Assembly (NCBI GenBank): GCA_963704725.1
Contig: OY969934.1
Coordinates: forward strand, 2,496,001 to 2,560,000
Origin: an uncultured Actinomycetes bacterium
GTDB lineage: Bacteria; Actinomycetota; UBA4738; HRBIN12
Reading direction: 5' to 3'
Length of the DNA stretch: 64,000 bases
Positions 38,573-46,860 of the stretch are shown here, piece after piece. Position numbers and translations under genes: made by a program. The first letter of the stretch is position 1, and every line of letters starts with the position of its first letter. The notes beneath the pieces were generated by a model. That model had not been told where the DNA came from, did not search any database, and was given only the letters and a program-made list of their open reading frames with translations.

Positions 38573-38602
38573 CGCCGTCGCGACGTTGGTAGCGTGGCCC
38601 CG

Positions 38603-39919
38603 ATGGCCACGCGGGTGCCTGCTCGTTCGCGACGGGTCGCGCTCGCGGCCGCGGCGCTCATCGTCCTGGCGGCGTGCACCTCGGGATCGCCGAGCCCGGC
38701 GCCCACCGCCTCCCACGCGCCGTCATCGGGCGGATCACCCACCGGCTCCACCGCCGAGGCGTCGCCGGCGGCGGCGACCTCCGTCGCGGTCGAGGCCCCC
38801 GCCGACGGCTCGCTCCGGGTTCGAGGAACGTACCCCCGCGTCCACTCGAGATGCGTCGACCACGAACGCCGCGTGCTCGAGGCCCGGTACCCCGGCGCCC
38901 TGTCCGTGGAGCGCGCGGACGACGGCACGCTCTCGATCACGGTGACCCTCCCGTTCGAACGCTACCTGGAGGGCATCGCCGAGGTCCCGCCGTCGTGGCC
39001 GCGCGCCGCGCTCGAGGCCCAGGCGGTGGCGGCCCGGAGCTACGCCCTGGCCTCGACCGGCTGGAGCGGTGAGGAGGGCGAGACGCTCCCCACGCCGATC
39101 TGCGCCACGACCTCCTGCCAGGTGTACCGGGGCATGCCCGTCCACGCCGACCCGGTCCTGCACCGGTGGTACGGCGCGGTGCGGCGGACGGCGGGCAGGA
39201 TCCTGGTCTCGGCGAGCCGGCCCGCCGACACGGTGTACTTCTCGACGTCCAACGGCCACACGTACGGCAACGAGGACGTCTTCGGCAGCGCGCCGCTCCC
39301 CTATCTCCGACCCGTGGTCGAGCGCGACGACGGGGCATCGCCGCTGTCGCGCTGGAGCGTGCGGCTGCCCTACGCCGATCTCGCCACGTTCCTGCACGCG
39401 GCAGGCGACTGGCCGGGGTCCCGCGCCGTGTCGAGCGTGGCGCTCGAGGGCTCGACCGTGGTCGTCTCGGGGGCCGGCGTGACCCGGCGGCTCGACCAGA
39501 GCGAGTTCCGCGAAGCGGTGAACGCATGGGCCCCGTGCCTCGCGCCGGACCGGTTCCCGCCGTCTCCCCTGCCGGTGACCGTCCCCTCGCGGTGGATGAC
39601 CATCTCCTCGAGCGCGGACGCCGCGACCGTGACCGGTCGAGGCTGGGGCCACGGCGTGGGGATGGTGCAATGGGGCGCCTACGGCAAGGCGGTCCGCGGC
39701 TGGTCGGCGTCGGACATCCTGGCCTACTACTACGGAGGGCTCCGGCCCCGGCGCTACCCCGAGCCCGGTCTGATCCACGTGCAGGTCGCCACCGGGCTGA
39801 CGTCGCTGCGCCTCGTCCCCTCGGGGCCGGGCGCGACGCTCGACGGCGAACCCCTCGCCCCCGGGACCGTCTCGATCGCGGGCGGTGACGAGCTCACCGT
39901 GGCCATCAGCTCGCGCTGA
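38603..39919 (+). CDS. SpoIID/LytB-domain lipoprotein (lytic transglycosylase-like)
   Basis: Lipobox LAAC, ERYLEGIAEVPPSWP.AALEAQAVAARSYA, CQVY and GWGHGVGMVQWGA. A TAGCGT box lies 7 nt before ATG 38603. Confidence 0.92.
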   Translation: MATRVPARSRRVALAAAALIVLAACTSGSPSPAPTASHAPSSGGSPTGSTAEASPAAATSVAVEAPADGSLRVRGTYPRVHSRCVDHERRVLEARYPGALSVERADDGTLSITVTLPFERYLEGIAEVPPSWPRAALEAQAVAARSYALASTGWSGEEGETLPTPICATTSCQVYRGMPVHADPVLHRWYGAVRRTAGRILVSASRPADTVYFSTSNGHTYGNEDVFGSAPLPYLRPVVERDDGASPLSRWSVRLPYADLATFLHAAGDWPGSRAVSSVALEGSTVVVSGAGVTRRLDQSEFREAVNAWAPCLAPDRFPPSPLPVTVPSRWMTISSSADAATVTGRGWGHGVGMVQWGAYGKAVRGWSASDILAYYYGGLRPRRYPEPGLIHVQVATGLTSLRLVPSGPGATLDGEPLAPGTVSIAGGDELTVAISSR

Positions 39920-40466: not shown

Positions 40467-41210
40467 GTGGTGAAACGGACCCTCGCAGGGCTCGGCGCCG
40501 CGATCATGCTCGCGCTGGGAGGAATGCCGGCCGGGCTCGCCTCTGCCGGCACGTGCCCCATCCCGCTCCCGCAGGGGGGCGACCCGGTGACGCTGGACCC
40601 CGCGGACTTCGTGGCGGTGATCGACAACCCGTTCCTGCCGTGGCCGGTGGGCGCGAGGTGGATCTACCGGGAGAGCGATCCCGAGGGTAACGCGCAGAAG
40701 GTGAAGGTCACCGTCACGTCGCACGCGAAGGAGATCCTCGGCATCCGGGCCACGGTCGTGCACGACGTCGTGTCCGATCGCGGCGAGCTCGTCGAGAACA
40801 CGTTCGACTGGTACGCGCAGGACCGGTGCGGCAACGTCTGGTACCTCGGCGAGAGGACCAGGGAGTACGAGCACGGCGTCGTGGTCAGCACGGCGGGCTC
40901 GTGGGAGGCCGGGGTCGACGGCGCCCAGCCGGGGGTCGTCATGGCGGCCGATCCTCAGGTGGGCGACGCCTACCGGCAGGAGTTCCTGGCCGGCGAGGCC
41001 GAGGACGAGGCCGCGACCCTGAGCCTGGCCGAGCAGGCCGAGGTCCTGGCCGGGCACTTCGACCACCTGATCCTGAGCAAGGAGTTCACACAGGTCGAGC
41101 CGGACGTGCTCGAGTACAAGCTCTACGCGAGCGGCGTCGGCGTCGTGCTCGCGCTCGGCGTGTCCGGCGGCTCGGACCGCGAGGAGCTCGTCAGCTCCTC
41201 GCTGGGCTGA
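40467..41210 (+). CDS. Secreted hypothetical protein
   Basis: Signal peptide and SD; IDNPFLP, E.TFDWYAQD..GNVWYLGE and GSWEAGVDGAQPG. Confidence 0.8.
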   Translation: MVKRTLAGLGAAIMLALGGMPAGLASAGTCPIPLPQGGDPVTLDPADFVAVIDNPFLPWPVGARWIYRESDPEGNAQKVKVTVTSHAKEILGIRATVVHDVVSDRGELVENTFDWYAQDRCGNVWYLGERTREYEHGVVVSTAGSWEAGVDGAQPGVVMAADPQVGDAYRQEFLAGEAEDEAATLSLAEQAEVLAGHFDHLILSKEFTQVEPDVLEYKLYASGVGVVLALGVSGGSDREELVSSSLG

Positions 41211-41517
41211 CGAACGCGCGGGCCTCCTCCACGAGGGAGCGCCAGCGTCGGGCGGCGGTCGGCGAGACCGCCGCCCACTCCTTCATGGGGTGGCCCTTGC
41301 CGGCGTCGAACCGCGTCGCCAGGCGGGAGGTCACGAGCTCGTCGACGCGGCCCTTCGGCAGCTTCACGACCAGCTCTCCACGCACCAGCATGGCGTAGAT
41401 CTTGCCGCCCATCCGAACGCCCTCGGATCTGCCGAAGCCGGTCCCGCCGGTCACCCGGGGCCGCGCGAGCTCGGCTCGGGCGATGGGCTCCCAGATCTGT
41501 TCCGGTGTTCTCGCCAT
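41191..41517 (-). CDS. TfoX/YjbR-like small protein
   Basis: GAGGAGG SD; GGKIYAMLVRGELVVKLP..RVDELV.....RFD.G...MKEW. Confidence 0.75.
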   Translation of the reverse strand: MARTPEQIWEPIARAELARPRVTGGTGFGRSEGVRMGGKIYAMLVRGELVVKLPKGRVDELVTSRLATRFDAGKGHPMKEWAAVSPTAARRWRSLVEEARAFVSPARS

Positions 41518-41691
41518 GTCGAGCCGTCCTCCTCGGGGACGCGAATGGTAGCGGCCGGGTGCGACACATGCGGCCGACGACGTTTCGAGAGTGTGACGAG
41601 CGGCACCTTCGCGAAGCTCACGCCGCCCTTGAACGCCGGCCGACGGTCGGCACATGATGACGCGCTCGGCCGGGGGAAGGGAGGGACGCAG

Positions 41692-42087
41692 ATGGATCCG
41701 CTCACGCTCATCGTCACGGCGCTCGCGACCGGTGCCAGCGCTGCCCTCAAGGAGTCGGCGGGGGACGCGGTCAAGAGCGCGTACGCCAAGCTCAAGGGGC
41801 TGCTGCAGCGCAAGCTCGGCGGGCGCCCGCTGGGCGAGGCCGTGCTCGCCGGCAACGAGGAGGACCCCGAGGTCTGGAAGGAACCCCTGAAGAAGGAGCT
41901 GCAGCAGGCGGAGGCCGATCGCGACGACGAGATCCTCCAGGTGGCCAAGGCGCTCGCCGATCTCGTGGCCCCCGAGGCGAGCCGTGCCTACACGATGAAC
42001 ATCACCAACGCCGGGCCGGTGGCCAAGCAGATCAACATCCAGCACGCCGAGCGCGTGGGGTTCGACGACGACGGGCCCGCCGGCTGA
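41692..42087 (+). CDS. Bell-domain-like helical effector with a C-terminal putative amyloid signalling motif
   Basis: GGAGGG SD. MDPLTLIVTALATGASAALKESAGDAVKSAYAKLKGLLQRK matches the Bell N-terminus (hydrophobic helix, then AVK.AY..LK). Tail ITNAGPVAKQINIQHAERV is shared with the next gene's N-terminus. Confidence 0.85.
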   Translation: MDPLTLIVTALATGASAALKESAGDAVKSAYAKLKGLLQRKLGGRPLGEAVLAGNEEDPEVWKEPLKKELQQAEADRDDEILQVAKALADLVAPEASRAYTMNITNAGPVAKQINIQHAERVGFDDDGPAG

Positions 42088-42099
42088 CCGGACGAGTCG

Positions 42100-44721
42100 A
42101 TGGATCCGCAGACGATCGCCAACCACGAGCCCATCGAGCGACAGATCAACGTCGGACAGGCGGACGCCGTCGCCGGGGCGGACAACGTCCTGCACGCCGA
42201 TCGCGTCGAGGGTGTCGCCGAGGTTCGGCACGCGGACGAGGTCCACCTCGTCACGCAGACCGGCGTCGTCCCGATCGCGCCGTTCCGTCTCTCGCACCAG
42301 ATCGTGGGGCGGGAGGACGAGCTCGCCGAGCTTCGCGCGCGGTTGTCCCGTCGCGAGGACGTCGCGCTCCACGGTCTGCCCGGCGTGGGGAAGACCGCTC
42401 TGGCGATCACGCTGGCCAACGACCCGGACGTGCTCGCGCGCTTTCCCGACGGCGTCCTGTGGGCCGGCCTCGGGCTGCACCCCGACGTCCAGGCGCTCCT
42501 CGGCCGGTGGGCCAGAGAGCTCGGGATGACCCCCGTCGAGATCGCCCGGTGCGCGGACCCCGAGAGCCTCTCGGAGGCGATCGCGGAGCGGATCAGCCTG
42601 CGCCGGATGCTGCTCGTGGTCGACGACGCCTGGGATGAGCGAGCGATGCTCTTCCGGGTGGGCGGACCGAACTGCGCGCACGTGCTGACGACCCGCTCCC
42701 CGCTGCTCGCCGTGGCGTTCGACGAGGACGGCGAGACCGCGGTGCGGGAGCTGGACGAGGGAGACGGGCTCGCGCTGCTCTCGGCGCTCGCCCCCGAGGC
42801 CGTGGCCGAGGCGCCGGACGAGGCTCGCGAGCTGGTGCGGGCGGTGGGGAGCCTCCCGCTGGCGTTGAACCTCCTCGGGTACCGCCTGAAGCGCGCGGGG
42901 TTCGAGGGCAAGGTCGGCGAGGCGCTGGCCCTGTTCCACACGGCCGAGGATCGGCTGCTGCAGGACATGCCGATCCGGCCGCGGGAGCGACACCCCGACC
43001 TGCCGCACGAGGCGACCATCTCGCTGCTCGCGGTGATCGGCATCAGCGACGAGGCCCTCGACGACATCGCGCGCCACGCGCTGCGGAGCCTCTCCGTCTT
43101 CCCGCCCAAGACCAACACGTTCTCGGAGGAGGCGGCCCTCGCGGTCTCCGCCGATCCCCCGGAGAGTCTCAGCCGGCTCGCGCTCGGGTGGCTGGTCGAG
43201 CGGATCGGGGGCCGCTACGCGCTGCACCAGACGGTCGGGGACTACGCGGCGGCGCAGCTCGACGACCGCGCCCCCTTCGACCGCATGGCGGAGTTCTTCC
43301 TCCGGCACGTCGAGCTGCACGAGGACGACTACCTGACCGAGCGATCGGCCGAGTGGTTGACCTGGCTCGAGACCGAGTACGACAACCTCCGCGCGATCCT
43401 GCGTTGGGGCAAGGAGGGACGGCCCGAGTGGGCGCTCCGTCTGGCCGGGGCCCTGTGGCGGTTCTGGGAGATCCGGGGGTACTTCTCCGAGGGACGCCGC
43501 GAGCTGGCGGAGCTGATCGCGCTCCCAGGCGCCCAGGACCGAACCGCGATCCGGGCCAAGGTCGTGGGTGCCGCCGGCAACCTGGCGTACCGGCAGGGCG
43601 ACGTCGCGGCGGCGACGCCGCTGTTCGACGAGTCCCTTTCCATCCTGCGGGTCCTCGGCGACGAGGCGGGCACGGCGGACGCGCTCAACGATCTGGGCAA
43701 CACGTTCAACGCGCAGGGCCGGTACGAGGAGGCGCGCCCGCTCTACGTCGAGAGCCTGGACATCCACGAGCGCCTCGGCAACAAGCGGGGCATGGCGGTG
43801 GCGATCAACAACCTCGGCTACATGGCGTACCGGCAGGGCGAGTACGCCCTCGCCGAGCAGCAGCTCGAACGGTCGCTCGCCCTGTTCCGCGAGGTGGGCG
43901 ACGTGTGGGACAGCGCGTTCCCGCTCTGCGGCCTGGCCCTGGTGGCGCTCGGGCACGGGGACGCGGCCGGCGCCGGCGAGCGGTGGGGGGAGAGCCTCGC
44001 GCTCCGCAAGCAGGTGGGCGACCGCCGGGGCCAGGCGGAGTCGATCGGCGGGTTCGGGCTCGTGGCGTTCTGGAACGGCGACCTCGGCGAGGCGCTGGCC
44101 CGCCACCAGGAGAGCCTTCGCATCCGGGAGGAGCTCGCCGATCGCCGCGGGATCGGGTTCTCGCTGACCAACCTCGGCACCGTCGCCTACCGTCTCGGAG
44201 ACCTGACGAAGGCGAGCTCGTACCTCGAACAGGGCCTCGCGCTCCGGCGGGAGCTGGCCGACCGTCGCGGGACGGCCGACTCCCTGGTCGGTCTCGGCAG
44301 GATCGCGGTCACGGCGGGCGACTGGGGCTCCGCGTCTGACCGGTTCCGGGAGAGCCTCCGGCTGCGTCTCGACATGCCCGACCGAGCCGGGATCGCCGAG
44401 GCCCTCGAGGGCCTGGGGATGGTTCGGATCGGCTCGGGCGATCAGGCGGCGGGAGTGACGATGCTCGCCGGGGCCGGCGAGCTCCGCACGGCCATCGGCT
44501 CGTCGCCCTGGCCCACCGACCGGCGAGACCTCGAACGATCGCTCGCCGTGGCACGCGAGAACCTCGGCGACGATGACCTCGCGGCGGCGGCGTCGAAGGG
44601 AACCACGATGAGCCTCGAGGAGATCGTGGCCCTCGCCGATCCGGACGGGTCTCCCGGCTCCGTCAGGGCAGTCGAACCGCCCACCGCAGCGCCACGAACG
44701 TCACCGCACCGAGCGCCGTGA
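42100..44721 (+). CDS. NLR-like STAND protein: N-terminal putative amyloid motif, NB-ARC-type NTPase and TPR sensor
   Basis: IVGREDEL, Walker A GLPGVGKT, Walker B LLVVDDAW, LTTR, GSLPLAL, LHQTV..Y, and about 7 TPR-like repeats (A.ALN.LG......G.Y..A......SL...R.LGD). Confidence 0.93.
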   Translation: MDPQTIANHEPIERQINVGQADAVAGADNVLHADRVEGVAEVRHADEVHLVTQTGVVPIAPFRLSHQIVGREDELAELRARLSRREDVALHGLPGVGKTALAITLANDPDVLARFPDGVLWAGLGLHPDVQALLGRWARELGMTPVEIARCADPESLSEAIAERISLRRMLLVVDDAWDERAMLFRVGGPNCAHVLTTRSPLLAVAFDEDGETAVRELDEGDGLALLSALAPEAVAEAPDEARELVRAVGSLPLALNLLGYRLKRAGFEGKVGEALALFHTAEDRLLQDMPIRPRERHPDLPHEATISLLAVIGISDEALDDIARHALRSLSVFPPKTNTFSEEAALAVSADPPESLSRLALGWLVERIGGRYALHQTVGDYAAAQLDDRAPFDRMAEFFLRHVELHEDDYLTERSAEWLTWLETEYDNLRAILRWGKEGRPEWALRLAGALWRFWEIRGYFSEGRRELAELIALPGAQDRTAIRAKVVGAAGNLAYRQGDVAAATPLFDESLSILRVLGDEAGTADALNDLGNTFNAQGRYEEARPLYVESLDIHERLGNKRGMAVAINNLGYMAYRQGEYALAEQQLERSLALFREVGDVWDSAFPLCGLALVALGHGDAAGAGERWGESLALRKQVGDRRGQAESIGGFGLVAFWNGDLGEALARHQESLRIREELADRRGIGFSLTNLGTVAYRLGDLTKASSYLEQGLALRRELADRRGTADSLVGLGRIAVTAGDWGSASDRFRESLRLRLDMPDRAGIAEALEGLGMVRIGSGDQAAGVTMLAGAGELRTAIGSSPWPTDRRDLERSLAVARENLGDDDLAAAASKGTTMSLEEIVALADPDGSPGSVRAVEPPTAAPRTSPHRAP

Positions 44722-45424
44722 TGACGGGGATGGCCCGTCCGACCCGGGACGACCCCGTTCGCCGCTCCCACAGGATCACGCCCTCGACCACGAGCATGAC
44801 GACGAGCGAGTGCGAGGCGGCAAGCGTCGCCGTCATCAACGCCCAGCAGCTGGTGACGCAACTCATGCCCACATCGACACCCAGCCACAGGCACCCGACA
44901 CCGCTCGAGGGGACCGGGCCGGCCCTGCCGCAGGCGCCGACGGCGGCCCGCTTCCTGGGCGAGCGCTGCCACGCGGCCGCGGCACCGAACGCGACGACCA
45001 CGGTCGCGGTCGGTCCCGCGACCCGCTCGAGGACGTGGATCGCGCCGACGAGCCCGATCCCCGAGAACACCCAGACCGCAACGTAGCCGCCCGCGTACCA
45101 GGCGATGGCCCGGTGCCGGCGTTCCCAGTAGCTGGCGAGCCCGAGATGACGGGCCGTCGGCAGGATCGTGGGGAGCATCATCGCCACGGTCATGAGGATC
45201 CACAGGGCGGCCTCGCTGGAAGCGTGAGGAAGGACGGAGACGGGAGCGACCGGGGTCCACCCGTCCCCCATCCCGCCACGACGTCGGAGCGCGGGGCCGG
45301 CGACCCACAGCCCGATCCACGCCGCGACCGCCGAGGCGCCCAGCCACCATTCGGGGTGGTACCACCGCACCCACCGGAGCCGAGGCGCCTGTGGCCGCGC
45401 GACGGGGAGCGCTCGAGCGATCAC
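44663..45424 (-). CDS. DUF2182-like metal-binding membrane protein
   Basis: W.LMTVAMMLP, GYVAVW, WQ.SP.K and SC..SCWALM. GTGA overlap with the tyrosinase gene. Confidence 0.8.
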   Translation of the reverse strand: MIARALPVARPQAPRLRWVRWYHPEWWLGASAVAAWIGLWVAGPALRRRGGMGDGWTPVAPVSVLPHASSEAALWILMTVAMMLPTILPTARHLGLASYWERRHRAIAWYAGGYVAVWVFSGIGLVGAIHVLERVAGPTATVVVAFGAAAAWQRSPRKRAAVGACGRAGPVPSSGVGCLWLGVDVGMSCVTSCWALMTATLAASHSLVVMLVVEGVILWERRTGSSRVGRAIPVITALGAVTFVALRWAVRLP

Positions 45425-46860
45425 TCGTAGTACACGCTGATCCGGCCGATCGACACGTCCCCGGCCGGGTCGCCCTCCGACCACACCGGCGTGAAGGTCA
45501 CCTCGAGGCGCTCGGGGTCCCACGCCTCCTGCAGACGGAGGCGCTCCACGACGTCCGTGATGTCGAACGTGAAGCTGAGCCCACCCTCGTGCTCCGAACC
45601 CGGCACCGAGGCCTCGCGCACCCCGAACATCGGCAGGCTCCCGGCGAGCAGGTCGTCCCGCTCCTCCGGGTCGGCCCCGGGCGGCAGGTTCACGTGGACG
45701 AGGTACGTCGGGGCGGACGAACGGGTCCCCGTGACATGCTCGATCGCGAGGTAGATCCGCGGCTCGCGGGCCTCGGCCGCGACCGCCGCGGCCACGGGCC
45801 CAACCGGCTCGCGCAGGCCCACCGCGGCGGCGTTCGGCGTCCCGCCGAGCGAGAGAGGGGCCTCCGTCGCTCCGACGAGCTCGGGAGGGGGGCCTTCGTC
45901 CATCGTCTCCTCCGGGGTCGCCGGGGCGGCGGCCGCCACTCCGGGCATCGCGGGCGCGGGGGCCACCGGCACGCCCCCGTACCGATACTGCAGCGGCGAG
46001 GCGGACGTGTCGAGGACGTCGCCCACCGTCATCGAGGTCGTCCACGCCCCCGACCCCATCTCGAACCCCCGGTCGAGCCACGCGCCCTGGTCGGGGTTGG
46101 CCCGTCCGCCTCCGCGCCGGAGCCACGCCTCCCACAGGCGGTCGATGTTCGCGTGGTGGAGCCAGAAGACCGGGTCGAGCGGCGCGGTCTGGAACGCGCC
46201 CATCCACCCCCCGAGCAGCCCGTGCACCTCATCGTGCGGATAGAGCTCGGCCTCGCCCTGCGGATGGTCCACGCTCGCCTCGGTACCGTGGAACCAGCCC
46301 GTCCTCGGCCCCCCGAAGGCCTTGGCCCCCGGTCGCGCCCGGATCACGAACCTCGTCATGTCGAGCGTCTCGTTCCACTCCCGCCGGTTCCACGGCAGGG
46401 GCTGCCCGTTCTTGATCGGTGAGGACCGATGCGTCGTGAACAGCGGGTTGGGGTCGCCGTTCGGGCGTTGCTGGGACAGGAACGCGGGCGGGAGCGCCCG
46501 CCGGCCCGGGACGCTGTAGTCCCAGAACGGGAGTGCCCAGTCGCTCGGCCCGCCGAGGCCGGCGACCGCGTCGCGGACGATCTTCTCGAAGTGGTGCAGG
46601 TAGATGCGATGCCATGGCAGGAAGAACCAGGTGTGGTGCTGGCACTGGTTCCACTTCGCGCCCGCCGGCCAGCTCGGCTCCGGGTCGGTCGTCCCGTGGA
46701 TCGCGGCGAGATGTCCCCAGCTCGTGGGGTCGGCGCGGTTCGCGCCGTCCCGGCCCCGGAGCTCGTCGATCGCGTCGGCGAACCAGCGGATCGTCGGATG
46801 CCAGGGATCGGCATCGGAAAGCGTCCAGATGTTGCGACGTTCGAAGATCGTGGCGGCCAT
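45421..46860 (-). CDS. Tyrosinase (type-3 copper) with a C-terminal lid-like domain
   Basis: CuA: AAIHG and CQHHTWFFLPWHR; LPFWDY; CuB: PHDEVHG and DPVFWLHHANIDRLW. GGAGGTG SD. Confidence 0.95.
   Translation of the reverse strand: MAATIFERRNIWTLSDADPWHPTIRWFADAIDELRGRDGANRADPTSWGHLAAIHGTTDPEPSWPAGAKWNQCQHHTWFFLPWHRIYLHHFEKIVRDAVAGLGGPSDWALPFWDYSVPGRRALPPAFLSQQRPNGDPNPLFTTHRSSPIKNGQPLPWNRREWNETLDMTRFVIRARPGAKAFGGPRTGWFHGTEASVDHPQGEAELYPHDEVHGLLGGWMGAFQTAPLDPVFWLHHANIDRLWEAWLRRGGGRANPDQGAWLDRGFEMGSGAWTTSMTVGDVLDTSASPLQYRYGGVPVAPAPAMPGVAAAAPATPEETMDEGPPPELVGATEAPLSLGGTPNAAAVGLREPVGPVAAAVAAEAREPRIYLAIEHVTGTRSSAPTYLVHVNLPPGADPEERDDLLAGSLPMFGVREASVPGSEHEGGLSFTFDITDVVERLRLQEAWDPERLEVTFTPVWSEGDPAGDVSIGRISVYYE

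Follow-up and report, generated by a model that had tools for sequence, protein, structure and literature searches.

Do two adjacent genes of an uncultured actinomycete encode an amyloid signalling pair, and does the motif that they share form a family of its own, multiplied on the receptor side? The question is raised by a 64,000-nucleotide stretch of DNA from an uncultured Actinomycetes bacterium (GTDB lineage Bacteria; Actinomycetota; UBA4738; HRBIN12; GenBank assembly GCA_963704725.1, contig OY969934.1, positions 2,496,001 to 2,560,000 of the forward strand), which we call the window throughout. An earlier note on this DNA had singled out positions 41992-42252, which run from residue T101 of a small Bell-like protein (P0002) through residue V51 of a NOD-like receptor (NLR; P0001), as a possibly new amyloid signalling motif with a strict 6-residue periodicity, expanded in the receptor. 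In the present study, the two proteins are, to judge from their sequences and those of their relatives, an effector/receptor pair of the bacterial amyloid signalling sequence (BASS) type, and their shared motif is built on a 12-residue unit that stands twice in the effector and four times in the receptor. We consider it probable that they make up a two-gene immune or cell-death module of BASS type, templated through this motif and representing a rare 12-residue-unit family of its own.

The motif shared by effector tail and receptor N-terminus

The likeness between the two proteins is short and came to light only with full dynamic programming. When Bell residues 91-131 were aligned locally with NLR residues 1-66, the Bell tail paired with NLR 6-29 at a score of 44, against a shuffle mean of 22 (standard deviation 4.5), and 4 of 5000 shuffles attained 44 whichever side was shuffled. 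On the effector side, the motif extends from Y100 to D127 (41989..42072, plus strand, as are all features of the pair) and consists of a YTMN lead followed by the 12-residue units ITNAGPVAKQIN and IQHAERVGFDDD. In the primary-register alignment these face NLR units 1 and 2, IANHEPIERQIN and VGQADAVAGADN (I6-N29, 42115..42186), after which come two extra units, VLHADRVEGVAE and VRHADEVHLVTQ (V30-Q53, 42187..42258), at the position held by a linker in other NLRs. The shared part is rich in Q, N, G, V and I, which make up 12 of 25 residues in the Bell tail (where L is absent and K and P occur once each) and 13 of 26 in the NLR (no K, one P, no L), and therefore fits the compositional bias described for BASS motifs, namely enrichment in Q, N, G, V and I and poverty in K, P and L (10.1101/2020.01.06.895854, available text).

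The gene layout agrees with this picture. The Bell-like gene (41692..42087, stop codon included) encodes a protein of 131 residues, the first 99 of which form a predicted helical Bell domain (41692..41988), and is separated by a 12-base spacer (42088..42099) from the collinear, same-strand NLR gene (42100..44721, stop codon included), whose 873-residue NB-ARC/tetratricopeptide repeat (TPR) product was recognized by Pfam. In the latter, the NB-ARC nucleotide-binding domain covers residues 72-266 (42313..42897; 63.6 bits against a cut-off of 23.5) with a Walker A match, GLPGVGKT, at residues 92-99 (42373-42396), and a TPR region, presumably the sensor part, lies at about residues 484-793 (43549..44478; TPR_12 at 187 bits in Pfam, and NCBIfam TPR models at 484-773 and 620-793). 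Among published Bell/NLR pairs, 91.3% are collinear and 57% have gaps of at most 10 bp, according to the available text of 10.1101/2020.01.06.895854. The reading frames of the two motif segments are borne out by the GC content of third codon positions (GC3), which is 0.95 in the Bell gene, 1.0 in the Bell tail and 0.88 in NLR codons 1-51. The matching of an effector C-terminus with an NLR N-terminus in the classic BASS gene order, as the earlier note had proposed, is supported.

The assignment of P0002 itself was approached through its relatives. A scan of GTDB with one genome per species, from which the best 80 of 90 tblastn stretches were kept, gave loci that all encode P0002 relatives (tblastn E 3e-27 to 1e-8), in Actinomycetota, Cyanobacteriota, Chloroflexota and other groups. 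At 32 of the 80 kept loci a downstream same-strand open reading frame (ORF) of at least 150 residues carried a matching motif with a score of at least 44, a cut-off that equals the window pair's own score and was set post hoc; a Walker A motif was present in 30 of these 32, and the two pairs without one were excluded from the distance figures. Many of the relatives' tails are of the BASS3 type, GKY.V...G.QGVQIGD.N.Q.N.F, which contains G-phi-Q-phi-G, and a BASS3 peptide of GKY...QGVQIGD-like form is printed in the available part of PMC8086366. The features described for Bell proteins, i.e., about 120-140 residues, a hydrophobic N-terminal helix and an acidic second or third residue (10.1101/2020.01.06.895854, in the part available), agree at the sequence level with P0002, which has 131 residues, the hydrophobic start MDPLTLIVTALATGASAAL and D2. 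Homology was judged here against the relatives at the GTDB loci; P0002 gave no match in Pfam, NCBIfam or PADLOC, and a Bell protein profile found no relative among PDB sequences (best match E 0.0041, a designed binder). Since matching NLR motifs occur at 32 of the 80 loci and the Bell features fit, P0002 and P0001 are filed as a Bell/NLR module of BASS type.

Period and repeat unit

The residues and hexads listed in the earlier note are exactly those of the translations. In the NLR, aliphatic residues stand at I6, I12, V18, V24, V30, V36, V42 and V48, giving IANHEP/IERQIN/VGQADA/VAGADN/VLHADR/VEGVAE/VRHADE/VHLV, and the Bell tail reads ITNAGP/VAKQIN/IQHAER/V. NLR residues 1-51 contain 13 I, V or L, eight of which fill all eight sites of one period-6 phase, a result equalled by 1 of 100,000 shuffles; with any period from 3 to 12 permitted, a run of eight was seen in 6 of 20,000. 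The 6-residue rhythm is therefore real for the aliphatic sites, but a period of 12 is stronger: in the self-comparison of NLR 6-53 the top offset was 12 (z 5.5, 12/36 identical), with 6 next (z 3.5) and 24 and 18 following, and in the orthologue P0021 the values were z 4.4 at offset 12 and 4.0 at offset 6. The hydrophobic moment of the NLR array has its peak at period 3, formed by V plus the A three residues on, and not at 3.6 or 2.

When the 21-residue Bell core (I104-F124) was slid without gaps over the NLR, positive peaks were obtained only at registers 6 (score 39, 8/21 identical), 18 (score 30, 8/21) and 30 (score 22, 5/21). At NLR positions 12, 24 and 36 the core scored 0 to 5, at 42 it scored -4 and at 48 -28, and off-register positions gave -4 to -45. 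Shuffled cores, with the maximum taken over 40 offsets, reached the score of register 18 in 25 of 20,000 cases and that of register 30 in 289 of 20,000; the same test in P0021 yielded 1 and 173 of 20,000, respectively. Because self-similarity peaks at offset 12 and the core fits registers 6, 18 and 30, we describe the receptor segment as an array of 12-residue units. The unit is [IV]-x-[NHQ]-A-[DEG]-x-[VI]-x-x-x-x-[NDEQ], with two copies in the effector and four in the receptor. Echoes of the Bell string IQHAERV, which the earlier note had heard twice in the NLR, are present as VLHADRV (score 24) and VRHADEV (score 22) and are significant as ungapped 21-residue registers, but not as a gapped local alignment on their own (317 of 5000 shuffles). 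A division of the NLR segment into two 24-residue pseudo-repeats was rejected on statistical grounds, since 1098 of 5000 shuffles did as well as the alignment of 6-29 with 30-51.

The unit that is repeated in the receptor is also the best-conserved unit of the effector. Across seven Bell homologues, Y100, V110 and Q113 are invariant, together with I116, Q117, H118, A119, V122, G123 and F124 of this unit, so that 10 of 25 positions are invariant in the tail as compared with 34 of 99 in the helical domain. On the receptor side, P0021 is 76% identical to NLR residues 1-70 and keeps all eight aliphatic hexad positions, the A-D/E positions, and units 3 and 4.

Rarity, origin and setting

How widespread is the motif? 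A protein search returned 18 relatives of P0002, and the same tail was found in six, P0003-P0008, each of metagenomic origin; outside the window pair, the motif occurs in seven protein clusters on the Bell side and in a single further NLR. With NLR residues 1-70 as the query, P0021 was the only other protein recovered, and a shorter-protein search with the NLR N-terminus gave nothing at E <= 1. A 41-column profile derived from the pair and run against 1.84 billion representative proteins produced six matches at E <= 0.001, half of which held up: P0003, P0006 and P0025 are true, the last with a variant tail, HIENYGPIDMQINIGQVGEIGG, while P0022, P0023 and P0024 were rejected as motif carriers, being long repetitive proteins and not relatives. 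No motif tail was present at the 80 kept GTDB loci, in a scan that included the pattern IQHA[ED]xVGF, or in 60 relatives, for which only three weak non-Bell matches appeared (E 0.0013-0.005). Viral contigs yielded no motif, and a metagenome scan yielded two distant Bell loci, neither carrying the motif tail. Among 400 sampled genomes of the phylum, the motif and NLR N-terminus profiles recognized only the window's own genome, with the motif profile scoring 43.7 bits on the NLR; the other genomes gave at most 16.2 and 21.5 bits, respectively, and the seven best other matches of the NLR N-terminus profile were internal stretches of unrelated frames. In the window's own genome there is a single Bell gene and a single clear NB-ARC gene.

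The motif is also set apart in direct comparisons. Against 81 other Bell tails, taken from proteins of 100-200 residues only, P0025 (z 10.0) and the relative L033 (z 5.1, through its YT.NIT start only) stand out, and BASS3-type tails reach z 2-2.8. In a local library that combined the Bell proteins from the 80 loci with 12 additional Bell relatives and 32 partner NLR N-termini, nothing scored above 9.1 bits except P0025 and P0021, the latter being part of the profile itself. Neither the Bell tail nor NLR 1-66 matched any Pfam model at E <= 10, including RHIM, other amyloid-motif models and Hexapep (PF00132), with the reservation from the Hexapep test that HMMER filters may hide very weak matches, and the NLR N-terminus had no sequence relative in PDB at E <= 10. 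The absence of a RHIM-type core, as reported in the earlier note, was borne out: the corresponding residues are V-A-K-Q-I-N-I in the Bell tail and I-E-R-Q-I-N-V in the NLR, without G-phi-Q-phi-G. Text searches of the available literature gave no occurrence of QINIQHA, ERQINV or KQINIQ, and those for BASS12 and BASS13 gave only unrelated papers, as judged from the search listings. As far as such listings show, no receptor-side repeats are reported in the literature on NLR amyloid pseudorepeats, and the available text of 10.1101/2020.01.06.895854, PMC8086366 and PMC12261475 holds no BASS consensus strings.

Several of the relatives' loci deserve mention in their own right. At L034 (Okeania sp.) a unit stands twice in tandem (GDVKGIIGD-GDVKGIIGD) at the N-terminus of the NLR-side protein and is likewise repeated in the Bell tail, which makes this locus a second case of receptor-side repetition. 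In L036, L044 and L053, from metagenome-assembled genomes (MAGs) of Trebonia/Streptosporangiaceae, the Bell tails bear a BASS3-type motif followed by Q-N-[IV]-x-A-G-x-x-x-x-V, and there is no matching NLR directly downstream; the second motif of L036, GPIQNINAGHNAYVSADD, is faintly like the window's tail (z 2.0). In L052, a Thermoflexales MAG, the Bell tail and NLR residues 44-61 share DLVQGDKVMRDKISKQIN and DQVAGDEVTRDKIGKQIN, another type, ending in KQIN.

As for the origin of the likeness, 42 of the 72 shared bases are identical, with 15/24 identities at first, 15/24 at second and 12/24 at third codon positions. With agreement this low at third positions, the likeness is old and has been kept at the protein level, and it does not stem from a recent duplication. 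A tandem DNA repeat or recent gene conversion was rejected on the same count, no repeat being detected at the motif by Tandem Repeats Finder (TRF). The two genes have their first 10 bases in common, ATGGATCCGC, as well as an MDPxT[LI] start (41692-41712 and 42100-42120); an MDP start is found in nearly all Bell proteins and in 0 of the 32 other partner NLR N-termini. The NLR N-terminus may come from a copy of the Bell gene in which the helical domain was lost. Across 42085-42102, the Bell stop codon, TGA (42085-42087), and the NLR start codon share a reading frame, with four codons between them (...GPAG, stop, PDES, MDPQ...), and read-through of this single stop would yield a fused Bell-motif-motif-NLR protein.

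The pair lies in a variable stretch. The left-flank gene (40467-41210, a 247-residue protein) occurs in 9 of 13 genomes from the genus, one of them unpublished, at 62-73% identity; in three same-genus genomes (L104-L106), the 9-10 kb past this gene are without any window gene from 41191 on, which marks a synteny break. GC content is even across the region, and a promoter and terminator scan of the locus found nothing. A search of sequencing runs gave one DNA run with 0.05 of the sampled words and listed no RNA run. A 971-residue open frame runs antisense to the whole pair (41191-44106, minus strand) and is taken for a high-GC artefact, because GC3 favours the plus-strand genes; only its last 108 or so codons (41191-41517) look real, being YjbR-like at E 0.00095, under the Pfam cut-off. 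Directly downstream of the NLR, on the minus strand (44663-46860), a tyrosinase with a C-terminal DUF7868 is followed by an overlapping PpoB2 copper-chaperone gene, with the look of a melanin-type operon. On the other side (38594-39919) a 441-residue protein carries a SpoIID domain (62.6 bits); the genome measures 3.45 Mb and has roughly 72% GC.

Competing readings and known systems

Several results weigh against a BASS-type module with a family of its own. The Bell domain of P0002 is confirmed by no Pfam model, and default BLASTP of the Bell segment against the NLR segment returned no alignment at E <= 100. The second and third registers depend on one or two short conserved stretches, and the N-terminus occurs in only two NLR sequences, P0001 and P0021. 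The neighbourhood is not a defence island, with its YjbR-like, tyrosinase and copper chaperone, SpoIID and PepSY genes, and PADLOC gave no system-level match at the locus. Two further points concern the expansion of the receptor. Walker A follows the motif end (N29) at a distance of 63 residues, the median in the 30 comparison NLRs being 65 (quartiles 58-72), and NLR 30-51 is without Q or N (6 V, 3 A, 5 D/E and 3 H in 22 residues; Q/N/G/V/I 7/22), which is unlike the described BASS composition. The claim of expansion consequently stands in part: the receptor has more units than the effector, since the core fits three registers shifted by 12 residues, but its N-terminus is not lengthened, and the extra units replace the usual linker. 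The Q/N ladders that the earlier note had envisaged have to be limited to the shared part, because the Q/N-rich half (ITNAGPVAKQIN) is not repeated. One could go further and hold that signalling is of BASS type with a templating core confined to NLR 6-29, residues 30-51 being a linker in which the V-x-x-A-D-x rhythm has another purpose, perhaps as an acidic, solubilising "gatekeeper" or as a segment docked on the NB-ARC domain at rest. The usual spacing suits this, as do the median length of 70 residues given for published BASS NLR N-termini in the available source, the net negative charge and lack of Q/N of residues 30-51, and the non-significant alignment of the two halves. We nevertheless give it no more than a modest chance, as the aliphatic period-6 run is eight here and at most five in the 32 other partner NLR N-termini, which carry an unpatterned linker in place of units 3 and 4, the Bell core fits registers 18 and 30 above shuffles, and the rhythm with its A-D/E positions is kept in P0021.

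Is the class really undescribed, as the earlier note had ventured? In favour of this is the lack of any Pfam match and of likeness to 81 tails other than P0025 and the start of L033; against it, the centre I-x-x-Q-I-N-V (NLR 12-18) recurs, by eye, in an archaeal NLR-side motif, VIGQQINVAGDA, called "resembling BASS3" in the available part of PMC8086366, so that the class might turn out to be a divergent, BASS3-like one. Membership in a published family, most likely the RHIM-like BASS3 or the unclassified "other BASS" pairs of 2020, draws further on the BASS3-type tails of the nearest Bell relatives, on the tail start Y-T-x-N-I-T, which parallels K-Y-T-V-D-V of relatives and is shared as YT.NIT by L033, and on the 44 pairs outside BASS1-10, with diversity "almost certainly" above ten families and more expected (10.1101/2020.01.06.895854, available text). 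We give this reading a modest chance, because G-phi-Q-phi-G, the signature common to RHIM, PP and BASS3 in the available text of the same paper, is lacking, no Pfam RHIM match exists, the local library stays at or below 9.1 bits apart from P0025 and P0021, BASS3-type tails align weakly, and only three true matches were found in the representative proteins. We take the motif for a rare and apparently undescribed sequence family, with a 12-residue repeat weighted towards the receptor, in a kind of system that is already known. An ordinary one-to-one contact without amyloid, e.g., beta-strand pairing that keeps the Bell protein bound to the receptor at rest in the manner of an inhibitor or adaptor, would fit a motif unusually charged for an amyloid core, whose H/D-E pattern could make defined polar contacts, and sequence alone cannot tell such readings apart. 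We think it quite unlikely, given that Bell relatives beside NLRs carry fibril- and prion-forming types (BASS1 and BASS3 in 10.1101/2020.01.06.895854, and the BASS3 peptide in PMC8086366, both in available text) and that an array with several registers suits stacking more than one fixed interface. Finally, the similarity might be the remnant of a duplication or fission with no present signalling role, as the in-frame TGA, the common first 10 bases and the MDPxT[LI] start, seen in no other partner NLR, could be taken to imply; with codon-third identity at 12/24 against 15/24 at first and second positions, a tail whose conservation is no lower than that of the helical domain, and an NLR array kept in P0021, this is highly improbable.

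Under the preferred reading of a templated two-gene module, a cue would be sensed by the receptor through its TPR repeats, upon which the receptor would oligomerise via the NB-ARC domain and gather its N-terminal motifs into a cross-beta fold, on which the Bell protein's matching C-terminal motif would be templated. Such templating would free the hydrophobic N-terminal Bell helix, resulting in membrane damage. Oligomerisation, amyloid templating and membrane attack are inferred from NWD2/HET-S and Bab/Agp. More tentatively, the two extra units of the receptor could add strands or rungs and, by offering three docking registers for the IQHAE.VGF unit, provide a better nucleus. In an unlikely stronger version, an inverse of HET-s, a receptor chain or small oligomer would pre-form a narrow, beta-solenoid-like nucleus with three equivalent registers, in which stacked His and Asp/Glu (unit positions 3 and 5) could give pH or metal dependence.

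What would follow if the module were confirmed? It would add a further sequence family of bacterial amyloid signalling motifs, of a sort already expected, and as such would be a modest finding and no surprise to specialists. The architecture is the more useful point, offering a clean natural case of a receptor with twice the effector's repeat units, and few repeats proposed for signalling amyloids would be shorter than its 12-residue unit.

The closest known systems are the Bell/NLR BASS1-10 pairs (Dyrka et al. 2020, 10.1101/2020.01.06.895854, as far as the available text describes them), in which a small Bell protein of the 120-140-residue class is likewise encoded just upstream of a same-strand NB-ARC/TPR gene, with a motif common to effector tail and receptor N-terminus, a shared part rich in Q, N, G, V and I, and an N-terminal domain of about 70 residues. 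The window pair differs in a motif unlike the other tails among the 81 relatives, in its strict 6/12-residue rhythm, and in having the extra units on the receptor, whereas the available text reports repeats on the Bell side only (BASS1, 4 and 6). With BASS3, RHIM and PP it has in common the Bell subfamily, the tail start Y-T-x-[ND]-[IV] and a central Q-I between aliphatics; Q-I-N-V is also found in the archaeal "BASS3-like" motif, an NLR-side motif that formed Congo-red-positive aggregates (PMC8086366, available text). It departs from them in reading A-K-Q-I-N in the tail and E-R-Q-I-N in the NLR instead of G-phi-Q-phi-G, without a Pfam RHIM match and with z at most 2.8. The left-handed beta-helix of Hexapep (PF00132) is different again, given the lack of a match on NLR 1-66 at E <= 10. 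A more recent parallel is Bab/Agp (BASS11), an amyloid-signalling abortive-infection system of E. coli, in which a small helical protein, related to Bell and ending in an amyloid motif, neighbours a TPR protein bearing the same motif N-terminally (10.1101/2024.11.07.622273, in the part available). That system lies in a prophage defence island and the window pair does not; the parallel drawn here is one of architecture.

HET-s/NWD2 (HRAM) resembles the window pair in combining a cell-death effector that has a C-terminal prion-forming motif with an NLR that has a matching N-terminal motif, and in placing pseudo-repeats in one chain. The NLR NWD2 has one HRAM repeat. The HET-s effector has two pseudo-repeats (10.1101/2020.01.06.895854, available text). 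The units of the window pair are contiguous and without a loop, and they show no sequence similarity to HET-s and no Pfam match. The earlier note had called the receptor expansion the reverse of HET-s; by register fit, with two effector and four receptor units, this is so, but the NLR N-terminus is of usual length. A pair weighted in this way towards the receptor would allow a direct test of whether the speed of nucleation and the threshold of signalling are set by how many rungs the templating side has.

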